Part shown: positions 2,698 through 26,846 of the stretch, piece after piece
Layout: the number at the start of each line of letters is the position of its first letter
How positions within the stretch are numbered: the stretch's first letter is position 1
UHGV virus genome: UHGV-0121572
DNA length: 34,306 bases
Strand: one strand, 5' to 3'
Source of the DNA: a virus
Program-made: the position numbers and the translations under genes
The notes under the pieces: generated by a model
Database searches by the model: none
What the model was told of the DNA's origin: nothing
Seen by the model: the letters and a program-made list of their open reading frames with translations, nothing else

Positions 2698-3354
2698 CTA
2701 TTTAACATACTTGACTGTTAAACTTATAATTTTACCAATTATTTCAATGTCTTCTATCTTGCATTCGAAGGCTCTGTTTCCACCCTCGACGAAGATTCTT
2801 CCACCGGGTAAACGAGTAATGTCACGGATCGTTATTTCGCCATCAATACTTATTACCCATTTACCATCACGTATATCATCAAATTCCTTATCACAAATAA
2901 ATTCAGAATTATTATCTGTGATTGCAAAAATATTCTTGAATGCCGACGGTAGAAATTCCCTATCGAAAATATAAAAACCGTCTTCACATAAGGCCCCATC
3001 AGATAATACATATTTAGCAACTTCCATAGTATTTGTATTTGCTGATGCTTGCTTTGAACCATGCCCTGTTGTTAGCCAATTAAGCGAGGTGCCCGTTTCA
3101 AGGGCGCACTGGATTACCCAATCTGCTGGAAAAATATCACGCATATAGCGCGTTGCCATGGTGCTCTTAGAAACACCTAAATGATCACAGAGAGCCTGAC
3201 GGGTACCGAACCCATATGCTTCAACTAAACGTTCTATGGCTTTCTTACCGCCGCTATTGAAATCCACAAGTCCTCCAAAGAAATCCAAAATTCGTTGACA
3301 GATTCCAAAAGCGATCTTAAAGTTGAACCAGAAGTGTTCTTTTGGAGCCTTCAC
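2698..3354 (-). CDS. cI: Phage 186-type CI immunity repressor
   Basis: Recalled similarity to 186 CI: N-terminal CI-type HTH (…[25 protein letters not shown]…[15 protein letters not shown]) and C-terminal domain (…[25 protein letters not shown]…); divergent from the rightward early operon; exact start uncertain. Confidence 0.8.
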
Positions 3355-5481: not shown

Positions 5482-6335
5482 GCACCATCCTGAAATGGGC
5501 GGGAAATAAAACCGCCATTATGTCCGAACTGAAAAAACACCTTCCTGCTGGCCCGCGACTGGTTGAACCTTTCGCGGGTTCCTGTGCTGTGATGATGGAG
5601 ACGGATTACCCCAGCTATCTGGTTGCGGATATTAATCCTGATTTAATCAACCTCTATAAAAAGGTTGCCGCTGATTGTGAATCGTTTATATCTCGCGCCA
5701 GAGTTTTATTTGAGATCGCAAACAGGGAGGTGGCTTATTACAACATAAGGCAGGAGTTTAATTACTCCACTGAAATTACTGATTTCATGAAAGCGGTATA
5801 TTTCCTGTATCTCAATCGTCACGGTTACCGTGGTTTATGTCGCTATAACAAGAGCGGGCATTTCAACATTCCCTACGGTAATTATAAAAATCCGTATTTC
5901 CCTGAAAAAGAAATTCGCGCATTTGCAGAAAAGGCCCAGCGAGCAACGTTTATCTGCGCCAGCTTTGATGAAACGCTGGCGATGTTGAAGGCGGGGGATG
6001 TGGTGTATTGCGATCCGCCGTATGACGGTACGTTTTCCGGCTATCACACTGACGGCTTCACTGAAGATGACCAGTATCACCTGGCATCTGTTCTTGAACA
6101 TCGGTCATCAGAAGGACATCCGGTCATTGTTTCTAACAGTGACACATCCCTGATCCGTTCGCTGTATCGCAATTTTACTCACCACTACATCAAGGCAAAA
6201 CGCAGCATCGGTGTGGCAGCTGGCGAGGGTAAATCAGCAACAGAAATCATTGCTGTTTCCGGGCCGCGCTGCTGGGTGGGATTTGATTATTCGCGTGGAG
6301 TGGATAGTTCTGCCGTGTACGGAGTACGTGCATGA
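5478..6335 (+). CDS. dam: Dam-like DNA N6-adenine methyltransferase
   Basis: ORF 5418..6335; ATG at 5478 with GGAGGTG RBS gives N-terminus [11 protein letters not shown] (AdoMet motif) and catalytic DPPY motif (…[10 protein letters not shown]…); stop overlaps start of A. Confidence 0.85.
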
Positions 6336-8746
6336 GTCATGCCGATATGAACAACTGCTGCGGCTTTAACGAAGCTGCCGCATCGTTCTCATGGAACAGC
6401 CCGAAAAAGGCCATTAACCCTTATCTGGACCCGGTGGAAGTTGCGCCGGTTTCTACGCTTTCAAACCTGATCACTCTGTACGCTGCCGATAACGAGCAGG
6501 AACAGCTGCGCCGTGAGGCGCTGAGTGATCAGGTCTGGGAGCGTTATTTCTTTAATGAATCCCGTGATCCTGTCCAGCGCGAAATGGAACAGGATAAGCT
6601 CATTAGTCGGGCAAAGCTGGTGCATGAGCAGCAGCGTTTTAATCCGGATATGGTCATTCTGGCGGACGTCAACGCCCAGCCTTCCCATATCAGCAAGCCG
6701 CTGATGCAACGTATTGAATACTTCAGCAGCCTTGGCAGGACAAAGGCTTATTCCCGCTATTTACGTGAGACGATTAAGCCATGTCTGGAACGACTGGAGC
6801 ATGTACGCGACAGTCAGCTATCTGCATCTTTTCGCTTTATGGCAAGCCATGAAGGGCTGGACGGCCTGCTGATCCTGCCTGAAATGAGTCAGGATCAGGT
6901 GAAACGCCTGTCCACCCTGGTAGCTGCGCATATGAGTATGTGCCTTGATGCCGCTTGTGGCGATTTGTATGCCACCGATGACGTTAAGCCAGAAGAAATC
7001 CGCAATACATGGGAAAGGGTGGCAGCGGAAACCCTGCGTCTGGATGTAATCCCGCCTGCGTTTGAGCAACTCCGTCGGAAAAGAAACCGCCGTAAACCCG
7101 TGCCCTATGAACTCATTCCGGGTTCGCTGGCGCGTATGTTGTGCGCCGACTGGTGGTATCGGAAATTATGGAAGATGCGTTGCGAATGGCGGGAAGAGCA
7201 GTTGCGTGCTGTCTGCCTTGTCAGCAAAAAAGCATCTCCCTATGTCAGCTATGAAGCCGTGTTGCATAAACGTGAGCAGCGCCGTAAGTCGCTGGAGTTT
7301 TTCCGTTCTCATGAACTGGTGAACGAAGACGGCGACACGCTGGACATGGAGGATGTGGTAAACGCCAGCAGCAGCAACCCTGCGCATCGCCGCAATGAGA
7401 TGATGGCCTGTGTTAAAGGTCTGGAGCTTATCGCGGAAATGCGCGGTGACTGCGCCGTTTTCTACACCATCACCTGTCCGTCACGTTTCCATTCCACGCT
7501 AAATAACGGCAGGCCCAACCCGACCTGGACAAATGCGACGGTAAGACAAAGCAGCGATTATCTGGTCGGTATGTTTGCTGCATTTCGTAAGGCGATGCAC
7601 AAAGCCGGGTTGCGCTGGTATGGCGTGCGGGTGGCTGAGCCGCATCACGACGGCACAGTTCACTGGCACCTGTTGTGTTTCATGCGCAAAAAAGACCGCC
7701 GCGCCATTACTGCATTGTTGCGTAAGTTTGCTATCCGTGAAGACCGCGAGGAGCTGGGCAATAACACGGGGCCGCGCTTTAAGTCTGAGCTGATTAACCC
7801 GCGCAAAGGAACGCCGACAAGCTACATAGCGAAATACATCAGTAAGAACATTGACGGGCGTGGTCTGGCTGGCGAGATCAGCAAGGAAACGGGTAAATCT
7901 CTGCGTGATAACGCTGAATACGTGAACGCCTGGGCGTCTTTGCATCGTGTTCAGCAATTCCGCTTCTTTGGCATTCCGGGGCGTCAGGCTTACCGTGAAC
8001 TGCGATTGCTGGCTGGTCAGGCGGCAAGGCAACAGGGGGACAAAAAAGCAGGTGCGCCGGTACTGGATAACCCGCGCCTTGATGCCATCCTGGCTGCTGC
8101 TGATGCTGGTTGTTTTGCCACCTACATCATGAAGCAGGGCGGCGTACTGGTTCCCCGTAAATATCACCTCATCAGAACCGCTTATGAAATCAACGAAGAG
8201 CCGACCGCCTATGGCGATCACGGCATTCGTATTTATGGCATCTGGTCACCTATTGCAGAGGGCAAGATCTGCACTCATGCAGTGAAGTGGAAAATGGTTC
8301 GTAAAGCCGTTGACGTTCAGGAGGCGGCAGCCGACCAGAGCGCTTGCGCCCCTTGGACTCGTGGCAATAACTGTCCCCTTGCTGAAAATTTGAACCAACA
8401 GGAGAAAGATAAATCAGCTGATGGGGACACCAGAACGGATATTACCCGCATGGATGACAAGGAGTTGCACGATTTTCTGCACAGTATGAACAAAAAAGAG
8501 CGCCGGGAACTGGCTGCAAGGTTACGCCTGGTGAAACCGAAACGGCGTAGAAACTACAAACAGCGAATTACAGACCATCAACGACAGCAGCTCGTCTATG
8601 AACTGAAGTCCAGAGGATTTGATGGCAGCGAGAAAGAGGTAGATTTACTCCTTCGCGGTGGCAGTATTCCGTCAGGAGCAGGCCTGCGTATCTTCTATCG
8701 GAACCAGCGTCTGAAGGAAGATGATAAGTGGCGGAACCTGTATTAA
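6332..8746 (+). CDS. A: Replication initiation endonuclease (P2 gpA / 186 A family, rolling-circle initiator)
   Basis: 804-aa ORF, last large gene of the early operon; size, position and internal region (…[13 protein letters not shown]…[14 protein letters not shown]…) consistent with P2 A-type replication protein. Confidence 0.85.
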
Positions 8747-8838
8747 TTACGCGGGTTAACAATTCGTGCTCTTAATAATACCAGGCATATCAGGCCGATG
8801 AACGTAAAAAAACGTTTTACATCAGTAAGATTATTATA

Positions 8839-8858
8839 TACTGTAAATATAAACAGTG
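8839..8858. promoter_or_regulatory. LexA (SOS) box TACTGTAAATATAAACAGTG
   Basis: Exact match to CTGT-N8-ACAG with AT-rich spacer, ~40 bp upstream of ORF 8899..9087; a second partial half-site (…TATACAGTA) lies just downstream. Confidence 0.6.
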
Positions 8859-8898
8859 GTTATGTATACAGTATTGCTTTGGTGTTATAGGAGGAAAG

Positions 8899-9087
8899 AT
8901 GCAGGACTATTTTTTGGAGTCTTTGAAGCTCCAGCGCATTGATTTTTTTCTTAAGCTTGTAGCGGCTAGTGAGTGTAGTGATGAAGAGAAGGGGCTGGCC
9001 CTGCAGTGGGTTTCTGAACTGACAGATGAACTCATGGCAAAAATCAGAACCCACGAATACAACCGCTCAATGGATGTCATCAGCTGA
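8899..9087 (+). CDS. Hypothetical SOS-controlled small protein (possible N-terminal part of a Tum-like antirepressor)
   Basis: 62-aa ORF with strong AGGAGG RBS directly downstream of the LexA box. Confidence 0.5.
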   Translation: MQDYFLESLKLQRIDFFLKLVAASECSDEEKGLALQWVSELTDELMAKIRTHEYNRSMDVIS

Positions 9088-9097
9088 GGTGACTTTT

Positions 9098-9331
9098 ATG
9101 CGCATTGAAATAATGATCGATAAAGAGCAGAAGATTAGCCAGTCTACACTAGACGCCCTTGAATCCGAGCTTTACCGCAATCTGCGCCCCCTGTATCCCA
9201 AAACGGTAATTCGTATCCGCAAAGGTAGCTCTAACGGTGTGGAACTGACCGGACTGCAACTGGACGAAGAAAGAAAACAAGTGATGAAAATTATGCAGAA
9301 GGTGTGGGAAGACGACAGCTGGCTGCATTAA
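9098..9331 (+). CDS. DinI-like protein (Tum C-terminal-domain-like)
   Basis: ORF 9026..9331; ATG at 9098 with GAGGTG RBS gives a 77-aa product MRIEIMIDKEQ…QKVWEDDSWLH matching the DinI family profile (MRIE… start, acidic W-containing C-terminus). Confidence 0.75.
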   Translation: MRIEIMIDKEQKISQSTLDALESELYRNLRPLYPKTVIRIRKGSSNGVELTGLQLDEERKQVMKIMQKVWEDDSWLH

Positions 9332-9490
9332 GAAACGTTGCTGGCGTCTGAAATTGCTTCTGGCGTCAGCAAGGTTGAACAACGAGTACAGTGAGGCGTT
9401 AGGTGTGGCGTTTATTTGATGAGTGAACGCCCTTTCTGCGACAGGTTTGGAGATTAAGGTTGAAACTACGGGCAAAATACCATCTTTTTC

Positions 9491-9916
9491 CTACTTAATT
9501 GAGTCCAGTAACAAGTTACAGTTACTCTCATTGTAGAGAGAACGAGCAATTAGTGTTACCTGCTTTCCATTCATTCCCGGCTTATCCCATAACACAGCTT
9601 CTTGCGACGCCACAAATTCAGCATAATCAATTATGCGTTGTTCGTGATCTGGTTCCTCATAGCCAAAGTATGAGAGCGCATCGTTGTAAGCGTGGTAAGC
9701 TGCTTTCTGTAATATCTTGATATCGGCTGTAGGTACTTGCTCCGTGTAGCTAGGATCTAATTGTGTGCTACTGCCATAGAATGCACATGAAAGGTAAGAT
9801 ATTGATTTCTGTTGAGCTTTAGTTCCTTTCTCATAGTTTTTAGCTGTTACCGCCTGAACTGGGACGCTAACAAAGCTTGCAACCAGAATTAAAATTAATA
9901 CGTAAAAGCTTTTCAT
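9491..9916 (-). CDS. Secreted/periplasmic protein of unknown function (141 aa), cargo (moron) candidate
   Basis: N-terminal signal peptide MKSFYVLILILVASFVSVPVQA with A-x-A-like cleavage site; GAGG RBS; opposite strand to flanking phage genes. Confidence 0.6.
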   Translation of the reverse strand: MKSFYVLILILVASFVSVPVQAVTAKNYEKGTKAQQKSISYLSCAFYGSSTQLDPSYTEQVPTADIKILQKAAYHAYNDALSYFGYEEPDHEQRIIDYAEFVASQEAVLWDKPGMNGKQVTLIARSLYNESNCNLLLDSIK

Positions 9917-10189
9917 TTTGACCTCAGCCGAAACGTTAGAGAGACTATCGAAGTTTGTAAAACCCGTGGCGATTCAGTTTGAGATCCTCCCCCTTACATG
10001 ATTTTTAATCAAATATATGCTTTTGTAAGCATACCTGTTAACCGAATTATTCATTTTTAGAGATCTTCCGACATACTGATTATGCCCGCTGAGGAGTTCA
10101 CCTTGCGTAAAGTCCGATTCGCTTTACTCGTCTGTGCATGTCTATGCTGCATGAGATTGCATGATCGTTTGAGGATCGTTTTTGCTAAG

Positions 10190-10214
10190 GCCCGCCAGAA
10201 CTGGCGGGCTTTTG
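10190..10214 (+). terminator. Rho-independent terminator ending the early/SOS rightward transcription unit
   Basis: GC-rich hairpin GCCCGCC-AGAACT-GGCGGGC followed by TTTTG. Confidence 0.6.
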
Positions 10215-10258
10215 CGTAGATTATGCACCTGCATGAAAACCACTACATAAAGCGGGCA

Positions 10259-10277
10259 GGCGTGGCGGGGATACGAG
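10259..10277. other. Candidate cos site (cohesive-end region)
   Basis: GGCGTGGCGGGGA matches the first 13 nt of the 19-nt cohesive end of phage 186 as I recall it (P2 differs by one base there), followed by a GCGCGC block as in P2/186 cos; sits between the end of the early region and the portal/terminase cluster. Confidence 0.4.
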
Positions 10278-10289
10278 CGCGCGCCACAA

Positions 10290-10360
10290 CATATTGTAAA
10301 TATGGTGTTAATTACGTTATTATTATAACACATAGATTAATTCTTCGATGAGATAAAGGA
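10290..10360 (+). promoter_or_regulatory. AT-rich promoter-like region and RBS upstream of the ATPase-HNH operon
   Basis: TTGTAA (-35-like) and TATTAT (-10-like) hexamers but imperfect spacing; AAAGGAG RBS 6-12 nt before the ATG at 10366. Confidence 0.25.
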
Positions 10361-10365
10361 GTGTC

Positions 10366-11589
10366 ATGAAATATTCAATTGATAAATTGGTTCATAAAGA
10401 TGAATTTAATAACAATTTCGAAATTGACCTTGGAGGGAGAAATTTAATTATTACTGGTAATAATGGTTCGGGAAAGACAAATTTATTAAAAAGATTGTAT
10501 TCTGTTTTAGAGCAGAGATTGGTTAGTATAGGGGATAATACCTTAACGAAGGCCATAGAAAAGCTGAACGAAGCTGAGGAACAATTAAGGAAACGTTTGC
10601 CTGGTGATTCATTATATGATTATTTTCTTAAACAGAAGAACGAAGCTACAAGGTTTATTGATAATGAAAAGAAATTTTCAATAACTTTTAATGATGAGAG
10701 GGATTTCAAGGTTTCAATTCATGAAAGAAAATCAATCATCAGATTTTTCGAAGCAACGCGGCAGGCGAGTATACTAGGTGATGGATCTATCTCAGGGATG
10801 GAAAAATTACTTCAAGAACACAAACAGCTATCGCTGACCAAGGATTCAGGTATATTATTTGAACGCTATTTAGTCTCTTATTGGAACTACGGGTTGCTGC
10901 AGAAGGGAAGTGGGAATGATATAGAGGCTGAGCGTGTTTTCAGCTGGATAGAAAAAATAAATCAAGATTTGAAAGTGTTGTTTGAAGATGAGTCTTTAAC
11001 GCTTGATTTTAATCTGGCAGAATTACGTATTTACTTAAAACAAAACGGTAAAGCACCTTTCAGATTAGATCAATTGTCGTCAGGTTTTTCATCAGTACTA
11101 TCTATTTATGCGGATTTGTTAGTAAAAGTTGAACTTGAAAAACTCGCACGTCACGAAATTTCAGGGATCGTTTTGATTGATGAAATTGATGCACATCTTC
11201 ATGTCACCCTACAGAAAAAGGTTTTCTCGTTTTTTAGTTCAGCTTTCCCAAATATACAGTTTATAATAACAACTCACTCTCCATTTGTTGTTCAATCTGT
11301 ATCGGATTGTATTATTTTTAATTTATCCACTTTAGAAACAATGTACGATCTCTCTATGTATTCTTACACGTCAATTATAAAAGGATTGCTAGGGGAAACT
11401 TCAGAGTCTGACACTCTAAAAGAAAAAATTAAATTGTTGGAGTCAATTTATAACGATCAGCAAATTAATGTTTTAGAATTGCAGAAGGTAGTCGGAGAAC
11501 TTGAGCCATATATTGATAAGATGGATGCAGCTTCGAAAGTAAAAATAGCCCTAGCTCAGAATAAAATCATTGAGATTCTAGGGGGGTAA
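10366..11589 (+). CDS. ABC/AAA-type ATPase (AAA_15/AAA_21-like; Septu PtuA-like defence ATPase candidate)
   Basis: Walker A GNNGSGKT near N-terminus, ABC-signature-like LSSGF, Walker B VLIDEIDAHLH and H-loop TTHSP near C-terminus; visibly AT-rich; 5-bp gap to downstream HNH gene. Confidence 0.8.
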   Translation: MKYSIDKLVHKDEFNNNFEIDLGGRNLIITGNNGSGKTNLLKRLYSVLEQRLVSIGDNTLTKAIEKLNEAEEQLRKRLPGDSLYDYFLKQKNEATRFIDNEKKFSITFNDERDFKVSIHERKSIIRFFEATRQASILGDGSISGMEKLLQEHKQLSLTKDSGILFERYLVSYWNYGLLQKGSGNDIEAERVFSWIEKINQDLKVLFEDESLTLDFNLAELRIYLKQNGKAPFRLDQLSSGFSSVLSIYADLLVKVELEKLARHEISGIVLIDEIDAHLHVTLQKKVFSFFSSAFPNIQFIITTHSPFVVQSVSDCIIFNLSTLETMYDLSMYSYTSIIKGLLGETSESDTLKEKIKLLESIYNDQQINVLELQKVVGELEPYIDKMDAASKVKIALAQNKIIEILGG

Positions 11590-11594
11590 TTATT

Positions 11595-12266
11595 ATGTTT
11601 AATGTTTCTAGGGTTGCTCCAGCCCCTGCCTGTTTAGCCCGTAAGACTTATAATGATCCTACGGTTGTTGCCGCGTTAAAAAGTATGTTCTTTGGTAAGT
11701 GTTATTTATGTGAGCAAGTTGATCTTACCGATCCAGAGATTGAGCATTTTACTCCTCATCAGGGCGATACATTGCTAAAATATAGCTGGGAGAATTTATT
11801 TTATTCTTGTCGTCGTTGTAATAGTATTAAAGGCACTCGACATACTAATATTCTAAATTGTACGGATTCCAGTGTAAATGTCACCAACGAGATTGTACAT
11901 ATATTACCGGGGATTAGCTCTGAAAGGGTAACTGTTCGTCCTTTTTCTTCAAATCCTAGCCAAGAGACATTAAATACAGTAGCGTTGCTTGATGAATGTT
12001 ATAATTTAGACAATACAGGTTTGCGTGGTATTACGCGAGAAAATTTAATGGAAAAAATTTTTGACCATTATTATGAGTATATAAATGTTAGACGAGTGCT
12101 GATCACTAGAACTAGTATACAGAGTAGAATCGATGAAGCTATTGAAACACTAAAAATAATGTGTAACCCAAAATATCCTTTTTCAGCGTTTTGGGTATGG
12201 CATTTTAAGCTCGATGTTCGGCTACATGAGTTACGGCCTGAGGTTTTAGAGGTTATTGACGTGTAG
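11595..12266 (+). CDS. HNH endonuclease (Septu PtuB-like nuclease candidate)
   Basis: CxxC…EH…N…CxxCN arrangement (…GKCYLCEQVDLTDPEIEHFTPHQG…WENLFYSCRRCNS…) typical of zinc-bound HNH nucleases; GGGGG RBS; co-oriented with upstream ATPase. Confidence 0.75.
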   Translation: MFNVSRVAPAPACLARKTYNDPTVVAALKSMFFGKCYLCEQVDLTDPEIEHFTPHQGDTLLKYSWENLFYSCRRCNSIKGTRHTNILNCTDSSVNVTNEIVHILPGISSERVTVRPFSSNPSQETLNTVALLDECYNLDNTGLRGITRENLMEKIFDHYYEYINVRRVLITRTSIQSRIDEAIETLKIMCNPKYPFSAFWVWHFKLDVRLHELRPEVLEVIDV

Positions 12267-25973: not shown

Positions 25974-26846
25974 TTAACTAGCATGTAATAAGTTGAACAG
26001 GTTTTTAGTTACTTCGTTTTTAGTACTAAAAAACATATCTTTAAGGTCCGGTAATGCAAAGGCAGCATTTTGGTCATTCGGTACAACAATAGGAGGCTCA
26101 TATCCGTTGTCATACATTTTCTTTAAAGCGGCTACTATTTTTGTCTGATTTTGACTGAATTCTTTCATGTCAATAAAAATTTCTCCAGATAGGGTCCCAT
26201 CATCTTCACGTAGTATCGCTGGTTTGACACGACATATCTGATCCATTTCTCCAGTAGAAAAACCGGCAATCGCTGCATTAAATAACAAAGATGAAGTAGC
26301 CCATTTTTCATATAGTTTTTTGATAGCCATGCTTCTGATTTTTTTATCGTTGATATATCCAATGCCACTGGCCAAAACTTCGGTTAATGGATTTTCCCCG
26401 CGAATTACTCCAGACCAATAGTTGTGCATCCAGGGCGCATTTTGCTCAAGCGGAGAGCCGAGATAATCAGTGATCCACTCTGAGTCCACCTCTGTAAAGT
26501 TCAAACCATGAAAATCAATTTCTGCAATAGTGTTTTTATAGTTTTGATTTAAACCCCAACGGTCAATTGCTATTTCAGCCATTTCTTTTGTTTTGAATAG
26601 ATATATTCCGGTTAGGCGGGAAACTTTATCTCTGAAATTGTCTGAGCGTACCTTTTCAAGAGCTAACTCATTTTGTAATTTTTCATTGTGATTATCTGAT
26701 AAGTATTTTCTTACTAGATTGTAGAACCAAATAGATACTCCAAACTCACTTTTATAACAGATTGATTCAATTCTTCCTATTGCAACCTCCCAGGCAACAA
26801 TTGGATTGTTTAAATTTAAGTAAGCATATAGTTTTCTCTGTTCCAT
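25974..26846 (-). CDS. Orphan hypothetical protein (290 aa), AT-rich cargo gene between G and FI
   Basis: Long ORF with own AAGGA RBS and stop codons upstream in frame; noticeably lower G+C than flanking tail genes; no motif I can assign. Confidence 0.7.
   Translation of the reverse strand: MEQRKLYAYLNLNNPIVAWEVAIGRIESICYKSEFGVSIWFYNLVRKYLSDNHNEKLQNELALEKVRSDNFRDKVSRLTGIYLFKTKEMAEIAIDRWGLNQNYKNTIAEIDFHGLNFTEVDSEWITDYLGSPLEQNAPWMHNYWSGVIRGENPLTEVLASGIGYINDKKIRSMAIKKLYEKWATSSLLFNAAIAGFSTGEMDQICRVKPAILREDDGTLSGEIFIDMKEFSQNQTKIVAALKKMYDNGYEPPIVVPNDQNAAFALPDLKDMFFSTKNEVTKNLFNLLHAS

Follow-up and report, generated by a model that had tools for sequence, protein, structure and literature searches.

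UHGV virus genome UHGV-0121572 is a stretch of 34,306 nucleotides (we call the whole of it the window) that holds a P2-like E. coli prophage with its genes in P2 order. Between the last gene of the early operon and the cohesive-end site (cos) lies a small gene on the - strand that encodes a protein of 141 amino acids (aa), and this gene is our subject. An earlier note, written from the sequence alone, had described the open reading frame (ORF) as a moron candidate with a signal peptide and had suggested roles in lysogenic conversion, in superinfection exclusion, or as a periplasmic inhibitor or immunity protein. We found that the gene very probably encodes a functional, secreted moron protein. 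More tentatively, we suggest as the likeliest of its possible roles that it could act in phage exclusion or in another defence at the level of the envelope; this suggestion comes from its location, its compartment, and analogy. The gene and its immediate surroundings comprise the following features.

9491-9916 (stop included), - strand: the 141-aa ORF, with an ATG start; WP_000834899.1, PHROG 7437
9922-9925, - strand: Shine-Dalgarno sequence GAGG, 5 nt 5' of the ATG; also present at the orthologue loci L032 and L033
9851-9916, - strand: Sec-type signal peptide MKSFYVLILILVASFVSVPVQA, codons 1-22, with predicted signal peptidase I cleavage after A22
9494-9850, - strand: the mature protein, 119 aa, 13.4 kDa, pI 5.06
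9403-10133: single-gene moron cassette, 731 bp, GC 0.408, an insertion relative to "empty-slot" P2-like prophages
9098-9331 (RefSeq start; the mechanical ORF runs from 9026), + strand: DinI-like gene, the left flank of the cassette; WP_001217575.1, Pfam DinI match at E 1.3e-22
10134-10284: conserved cos region of P2-like prophages, a 150-bp block and the right flank of the cassette
10261-10279: cohesive-end sequence GGCGTGGCGGGGATACGAG, read from the conserved block

The gene, its product, and its family

The boundaries given in the earlier note are exact, and RefSeq calls the identical frame as WP_000834899.1, a "hypothetical protein" (A0A0K5BM55_ECOLX in UniRef). The protein matches the hidden Markov model (HMM) of PHROG 7437, a family annotated as function unknown, along its full length (1-141 of 141, E 4.3e-99). 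Together with the substitution rates described below, this match argues that the ORF is a real gene and not a chance reading frame.

The N-terminus reads MKSFYVLILILVASFVSVPVQA followed by VTAK. We called the signal peptide by a rule-based reading, from its n-, h- and c-regions and the -3/-1 rule: the parts are MK (with K2 in the n-region), FYVLILILVASFVSVPV, and VQA before the V of the mature chain, with V at -3 and A at -1. The hydrophobic core spans 17 residues and has a mean Kyte-Doolittle value of 2.5 (residues 4-19), and there is neither a lipobox nor a twin-arginine motif. The mature part has no hydrophobic segment (the maximum 19-residue Kyte-Doolittle value is 0.35) and no enzyme-like or catalytic motif. 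It contains two cysteines, C44 (9785-9787) and C133 (9518-9520), and a conserved tryptophan, W110 (9587-9589). Thus, both the Sec signal and the pair of mature cysteines that had been noticed in the letters are borne out. One public source labels a variant of the 141-aa protein as "outer membrane lipoprotein-sorting protein"; this appears to be a propagated mis-annotation, as the protein lacks a lipobox and matches neither Pfam nor NCBIfam.

Relatives of the protein are few. A word-indexed search of 5.8 billion proteins returned seven clusters only, from E. coli, K. aerogenes (90% identity), Hafnia alvei (77%), and Enterobacter roggenkampii (71%). An HMM scan of 1.84 billion cluster representatives gave 17 matches, 11 of which are full-length relatives (126-168 aa, 24-43% identity). 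PHROG 7437 also matches three of the distant relatives (P0015, P0016, and P0023, at 1e-8 to 1e-14). All of the named sources are Enterobacterales: Salmonella, Klebsiella, Citrobacter, Hafnia, Enterobacter, Escherichia, and E. albertii. Every family member (16/16) has an N-terminal signal-like segment, and in nearly all of them the residue aligned to -1 is small. C44 and W110 are invariant, and C133 is lost only in P0005, which is truncated at its C-terminus. The family motifs are Y-x-x-C-[AG]-F-[YF]-G; I-I-D-Y-A-E-[FY]-V-A-S-Q-E-A-V-L-W-D-K-P-G-M-N; and Y-x-E-x-N-C-x-L-L-L.

The relatives are found in varied mobile settings. The 77% orthologue from Hafnia lies in a P2-like prophage, in the moron slot between the tail genes S and V, and is followed by a PDC-S11 candidate defence gene; in a lambdoid prophage, another 77% orthologue (P0003) comes after the tail-fibre genes and is last in the gene order. 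A Citrobacter relative (P0026) adjoins an icd fragment at the end of a prophage, with T5orf172, SRAP, UmuDC, and DinI genes nearby. Relatives in K. aerogenes (P0016) and Salmonella (P0017) lie, respectively, between the integrase and the terminase of a prophage and next to a PvuRts1I-like nuclease. Relatives that are about 50% identical to a plasmid-borne member from Salmonella (P0023) are on replicons of 105-230 kb, which are mostly non-mobilizable. We found no match when we compared the 141-aa protein and two distant relatives with 50,697 isolated phage genomes (INPHARED) by tblastn, and there is no family member among one-per-species reference genomes. Prophages and plasmids are the only known carriers of the family: it is a rare mobile accessory gene of temperate elements, usually solo and often beside defence genes.

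We compared the gene with three orthologues and obtained ratios of nonsynonymous to synonymous substitution rates (dN/dS) of 0.14, 0.20, and 0.27, at synonymous divergences (dS) of 0.30, 0.23, and 0.43. By this comparison of sequences, the gene is under purifying selection. These values bear on one alternative, that the ORF is a non-functional hitch-hiker which is carried along with cos-proximal DNA and gives no selectable benefit. No function can be assigned to it by homology, and the near-identical E. coli copies indicate recent spread, so that intactness within E. coli is weak evidence. However, such a passenger is hard to reconcile with the low dN/dS, with relatives of the same length at 24-43% identity that keep the signal peptide, both cysteines, and W110, or with a confident fold and a good Shine-Dalgarno sequence. 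The selection signal largely refutes this alternative, and we consider it highly improbable.

The predicted structure is consistent with a small soluble protein. With an alignment of 15 mature sequences, AlphaFold2 gave a mean predicted local distance difference test score (pLDDT) of 94.7 and a predicted template-modelling score (pTM) of 0.87; with seven close sequences, the pLDDT was 76. The chain is predicted to fold as a bundle of five helices (mature residues 3-31, 41-61, 69-88, 98-108, and 111-118), so the structure prediction that the earlier note had proposed as a check gave a confident answer. C44 falls in helix 1 and C133 is at the start of the last helix. Because both cysteines are (near-)invariant and the protein is destined for the periplasm, a C44-C133 disulfide probably joins helix 1 to the C-terminal helix. 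A Foldseek search of the model against BFVD found no viral structural neighbour.

The cassette and its place beside cos

The 141-aa gene is a discrete insertion. Relative to the P2-like prophages of E. coli S88 and WP3-S18, in which the cos block follows the DinI-like gene almost directly, homology stops at 9402 and restarts at 10134, and in the S88 prophage the two flanks of the cassette are just 7 bp apart. The cassette holds only the 141-aa gene. Among 5,426 complete E. coli genomes, 1,278 have the 150-bp cos block and 101 (about 2%) have the gene, always at full length and at 99% identity or more, which amounts to a presence/absence polymorphism; the identical protein sequence is found on at least 1,000 contigs. 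The composition of the gene deviates as well. The ORF has a GC fraction of 0.404 (0.387 at third codon positions), as compared to 0.508 for the window, 0.529 for replication gene A, 0.505 for the portal gene, and 0.458 for the DinI-like gene. The sharp boundaries and the deviating composition, along with relatives in other moron slots and on plasmids, mean that its status as a moron is well supported.

The earlier note had also placed the gene between a DinI-like gene and cos, transcribed against the flanking genes. Both statements hold, with a refinement of the second: the gene is on the opposite strand from gene A, the DinI-like gene, and the Septu genes beyond cos, and on the same strand as portal gene Q. 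The DinI-like gene is the last of the early operon and is convergent with the 141-aa gene. The position of cos follows from three observations, namely the conserved block, the annotated cosR of P2, and the L033 orthologue locus. In P2, cosR is ggcgaggcggggaaagcac and is preceded by the motif gcatgagattgcat, which is present in the window too; L033 has GGCGAGGCGGGGATAGCAC at the aligned position, one mismatch from P2. The 19-mer of P2 cos was not found in the window when up to 3 mismatches were allowed, because the end of this prophage has 5 differences from it.

Inside the cos block, about 50 bp short of the cohesive end, we noticed a GC-rich hairpin followed by a run of T (10190-10213, + strand: GCCCGCC-agaact-GGCGGGC, then TTTT). 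It was read from the sequence and was not listed by the consensus scan. It looks like a + strand terminator of the early operon. Because the cassette lies between the DinI-like gene and this hairpin, lytic read-through from the early operon would be antisense to the 141-aa gene. RefSeq also annotates a pseudogene across the cos site ("hypothetical protein, internal stop"; 10151-10351, + strand, which corresponds to 5812-6012 of L001); this is probably an annotation artefact on non-coding packaging DNA.

The tin and old genes of P2, which make up its "TO region", are constitutively expressed exclusion genes. The order in P2 is A(+), orf91(+), tin(-), old(-), the start of the old-tin mRNA about 150 bp from cosR, and then cosR. 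Comparing this with the order in the window, the 141-aa gene sits in the tin/old slot and in the same orientation. The resemblance is one of position and of type: in both cases, leftward genes that point away from cos and that are non-essential, AT-rich, and variable among related prophages occupy the slot that separates cos from the early replication operon. In contrast, Tin and Old are cytoplasmic and unrelated to it in sequence (Old is an exonuclease, according to the P2 record), while the 141-aa protein is small and predicted to be exported. A further difference from P2 is that in the lineage of the window there is larger variable cargo between cos and Q. The A-to-Q region of P2 has been named "moron position 1" (PMC3573123), and Rousset et al. 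2022 (PMC9122126) treat the cos-proximal region between gpA and gpQ as a P2 defence hotspot; Table S5A of that paper includes WP_000834899 in several locus arrangements.

In the window, the cargo on the other side of cos is a complete Septu system (GC 0.35) between cos and portal gene Q, outside the cassette and across cos from the tin/old slot:

10366-11589, + strand: Septu PtuA, a 407-aa AAA_21 ATPase; PADLOC E 1.5e-124
11595-12266, + strand: Septu PtuB, a 223-aa HNH nuclease; PADLOC E 2.6e-83

The earlier note had missed that these ATPase and HNH neighbours make up Septu. The cargo varies independently of the 141-aa gene. All 32 of the 32 IMG/VR loci that we compared (L005-L036) have the portal gene, variable cargo, the cos block, 217 bp, the 141-aa gene, the DinI-like gene, and gene A, in this order. 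The 141-aa gene is 99-100% identical across these loci, as against 76-96% for the portal gene and 84-99% for gene A. The cargo between cos and the portal gene takes at least 17 forms, including PDC-M03A, a ShosA/DprA-like protein with a PRTase, the PDC-S49 KAP NTPase, a type I-C retron (reverse transcriptase-Toprim), a type II-A retron reverse transcriptase, Lamassu LmuB, Hp2, and Septu. As the same gene occurs with at least 17 cargos, it is not a component of those systems. Cargos at a few loci have no PADLOC match (a 353-aa protein in L007, a trio with a 368-aa protein in L017 and L022, and a 435-aa protein in L036) and are candidates for new systems.

The region upstream of the gene

Three kinds of feature bear on how the cassette arose and on how the gene might be expressed:

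10012-10041, - strand: candidate sigma-70-like promoter TTAACA-18-TATATT, predicted by a consensus scan (10/12 matches)
9936-10023, - strand: pseudogene remnant, the last ~27 codons of a Hafnia-type gene for a 215-aa protein with two transmembrane segments (2-TM protein), from DNA alignments
L051 6333-6980, L040 7267-7926, and L053 434-1090: genes of the 2-TM protein family

In the P2-like prophage of Hafnia and in the K. aerogenes prophage, the gene directly before the family member encodes a protein of 215-219 aa, in which two hydrophobic helices at the N-terminus precede a C-terminal domain of about 165 aa. The Hafnia and K. aerogenes proteins are homologous (29% identity, E 3e-18). This 2-TM family is very rare, represented by the K. 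aerogenes copy and by only two clusters among 5.8 billion proteins, and it has no match in Pfam, PHROG, PADLOC, or the PDB, with holin families included in the comparison.

The window retains the end of such a gene. Positions 9917-10023 align with the end of the Hafnia gene and with the intergenic spacer that follows it, and the position of the Hafnia stop codon corresponds to 9936. The remnant has an in-frame stop and a 6-nt insertion (KHIFD*KSCKGEDLK..FYKLR*, versus KHTFDYKSGKWEDLKPWEFYRFRDAL* in Hafnia, where asterisks are stops). From this alignment, we conclude that the E. coli cassette is a two-gene unit that has been truncated at its 5' end, a descent that the earlier note had not recognized.

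The candidate promoter straddles the truncation. Its -10 element (TATATT, 10012-10017) is inside the remnant, where the Hafnia sequence reads TACGTT, and its -35 element (TTAACA, 10036-10041) is in non-homologous DNA, so that the promoter, which is predicted from sequence, may have arisen at the truncation junction. It lies 95 nt upstream of the 141-aa gene. L032 and L033 keep the -35 element and read TATGTT at the -10 element. They also have the same truncated upstream junction as the window. Their divergence from the 141-aa gene (dS 0.23-0.30, dN/dS 0.14-0.20) therefore arose in the solo state, which implies that the gene works alone. We also observed a 7-4-7 palindrome, TATGCTTacaaAAGCATA (10016-10033, - strand), which overlaps the predicted -10 element, has mostly been kept in L032 and L033, and may serve as an operator. 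A search of 8700-10500 against Rfam gave no match.

The ancestral pairing raises another explanation, in which the 141-aa protein is half of a membrane/periplasm device with the ~215-aa 2-TM protein (for lysis timing of the holin/antiholin kind, or as an envelope sensor) and the copy that stands alone in E. coli is a relic, either decaying or put to a new use. Homologous 2-TM genes do precede family members in two very different phages, in addition to the remnant in the window. Also, the architecture, in which an N-terminal transmembrane segment and a periplasmic domain of about 165 aa are combined with a small secreted helical protein, recalls T4 holin T and antiholin RI. Nevertheless, most members of the family are solo, and the third 2-TM homologue is followed by an unrelated gene; these two observations rule out the 2-TM protein as an obligate partner. 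Furthermore, purifying selection has acted on the solo gene since it was truncated upstream, the 2-TM protein does not match any holin family, and the Hafnia prophage has a separate holin gene. We think this explanation quite unlikely.

Possible functions and other prophage cargo

If the 141-aa protein is indeed an exclusion or defence protein, it might work as follows. The protein would be exported by the Sec system and cleaved after Ala22, and the mature protein would fold in the periplasm as an acidic 13-kDa five-helix bundle. Because it is small and soluble in the periplasm and has no catalytic motif, it would act by binding some periplasmic target, which could be a tail-tip protein, a cell-wall-piercing protein, or a DNA conduit. 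Binding would disturb the delivery of superinfecting phage genomes while it passes through the periplasm, and the lysogen would be protected at its envelope. We infer that the gene is expressed from the prophage, and likewise both the exclusion phenotype and the binding mode of action. In favour of such a role are the position and orientation shared with tin/old, the sharply bounded AT-rich cassette, the conserved export signal with its invariant residues, the confident helical model, the selection on the solo gene, its independence from the cargo beyond cos, the frequent company of defence genes (also among its relatives), and the likeness to Glo described below.

The model for this mechanism is Spackle (Sp) of phage T4, a small helical protein that is soluble in the periplasm. 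It binds and inhibits the tail-tip lysozyme gp5 and so blocks the delivery of the superinfecting genome. By analogy, the 141-aa protein might do the same. Spackle was rejected as a homologue, as there is no similarity in sequence or fold. A second point of comparison is Glo from the Vibrio phage K139 (Peduoviridae, a temperate phage of the P2 family), which is annotated as "periplasmic protein; involved in phage exclusion". Glo is of nearly the same length (137 versus 141 aa) and has an N-terminal signal peptide and one cysteine near each end of the mature chain. Unlike the 141-aa gene, glo is in the lysogenic operon int-glo-orf2-cI and not beside cos.

Several results weigh against exclusion or defence as the function. 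First, none of the known exclusion, defence, inhibitor, or immunity proteins in the libraries searched proved homologous, whether by sequence or by fold. PADLOC-DB 2.0 (E thresholds of 0.01 to 0.1) had no match for the 141-aa protein or for four of its relatives, while the neighbouring genes match strongly. In Pfam, all 16 family members together gave only scattered chance matches to single members, and profile searches of the PDB (A1 and A3) gave nothing beyond a chance match to PepQ at E 1.3, with one search returning none at E ≤ 10. (NCBIfam likewise gave only a chance match to PepQ for the 141-aa protein, at E 0.08.) Even Glo was rejected as a homologue, with an hhalign probability of 1.5%. 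Second, there is no convincing terminator past the stop of the 141-aa gene (z-score 0.9), and the promoter is a match to the consensus only. Third, the ancestral pairing with a membrane protein could mean a different, two-component job. Fourth, some relatives have no obvious link to defence: an 84-kb plasmid of Salmonella has P0023 between hicA and a mer operon, and the P0023-type replicon that we examined is a 113-kb IncFIB replicon with phage genes. Finally, in the locus arrangements of Table S5A in PMC9122126, WP_000834899 is just "hypothetical" and not a tested system, and the part of Table S5B that was searched does not give it as a system of its own. A literature search for papers that name WP_000834899 returned, within the text open to such searches, none beyond that table.

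The earlier note had pointed to lysozyme inhibitors, immunity proteins, and exclusion factors as families to compare. This comparison, by remote homology, gave no match. For the periplasmic lysozyme inhibitors (Ivy, MliC/PliC, PliG, and LprI/DUF1311), there was no family or fold match; the general sequence and fold searches of the PDB took in Spackle, Ivy, MliC, HdeA, and Tai4 indirectly. So while the structural part of the note's reading stood, its functional part, whether exclusion, conversion, or inhibition and immunity, found no backing in a sequence or fold relation to such families.

The same comparisons bear on the possibility that the protein is an orphan immunity protein which neutralizes a toxin that acts in the periplasm (an amidase from a type VI secretion system, a muramidase of the colicin or pesticin type, or a host lysozyme), with a benefit in bacterial competition or in the host. 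Periplasmic immunity proteins of the Tai4/Rap type protect against type VI amidases; the match to them was at the background level for helical bundles, with no sequence similarity and no cognate effector gene nearby. The pesticin immunity protein Pim (from pPCP1) was ruled out as a homologue, with an hhalign probability of 0.2%. We regard an immunity role as unlikely.

It is about equally improbable that the protein is a lysogenic-conversion factor for fitness or virulence that is unrelated to phages or toxins, such as a chaperone for periplasmic stress or a factor in envelope homeostasis. HdeA is an example of a small helical chaperone of the periplasm that has a disulfide bond. The E. coli carriers come from many sources (humans, pigs, poultry, cattle, pets, and water), and the plasmid relatives adjoin resistance determinants. 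Also, neaT, a gene in a P2-like moron slot of strain CFT073, promotes fitness in bacteraemia (PMC3573123). On the other hand, the protein is not similar to any chaperone or virulence family, its hosts are not restricted to a niche, and its immediate genomic neighbours are mostly anti-phage systems.

Returning to exclusion or envelope defence, a broader proposal can be formulated, although it is more speculative still and we consider it doubtful. The family might be a new and structurally unrelated class of standalone periplasmic anti-phage effector, a helical binder that blocks genome entry. It would have been paired ancestrally with the 2-TM partner as an envelope defence and would be traded between moron slots by the temperate phages and plasmids of Enterobacterales.

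Nearly all of the catalogued anti-phage systems act in the cytoplasm. Proteins known to halt phages in the periplasm are, to our knowledge, few: T4 Spackle, K139 Glo, P1 Sim, and, as was recently reported, the HXS effector. The 141-aa gene is a one-gene candidate for periplasmic defence in the best-studied prophage defence hotspot, and its structural model has no known relative. The cassette also illustrates how a moron can originate, with a two-gene unit truncated and the predicted -10 element placed inside the remnant of the lost gene. If the protein is an immunity or fitness factor instead, then it would still provide a new lysogenic-conversion function in about 2% of complete E. coli genomes. 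The protein itself is already known as a hypothetical protein, in databases and in the published hotspot table, and prophage morons that encode small periplasmic proteins are a known kind. As far as we could find, there was no earlier description of the family, of its fold, or of its descent from a truncated two-gene unit.

The rest of the prophage follows the P2 arrangement. The genes that precede the DinI-like gene include:

1258-2457: integrase, in P2-like prophage gene order
2698-3354: CI-type repressor, followed by CII/CP76 and a Dam methylase
6332-8746, + strand: replication gene A, followed by a 62-aa PHROG 698 gene, the DinI-like gene, and the 141-aa gene

Past the 141-aa gene, the order is Septu PtuA, PtuB, portal gene Q, terminase, and the late genes. 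Two other ORFs resemble cargo, and neither had a match in Pfam or PADLOC searches. A second AT-rich ORF on the opposite strand (25974-26846, - strand, 290 aa, GC about 0.34) lies between a tail-fibre assembly gene and the sheath gene FI, and it occupies the Z/fun slot of P2, or "moron position 2". The other ORF (732-1217, - strand, 161 aa, GC about 0.41) has a hydrophobic N-terminus and lies between a TetR-family gene (20-586), which is presumably host DNA, and the integrase. This 161-aa ORF may be an att-proximal moron.

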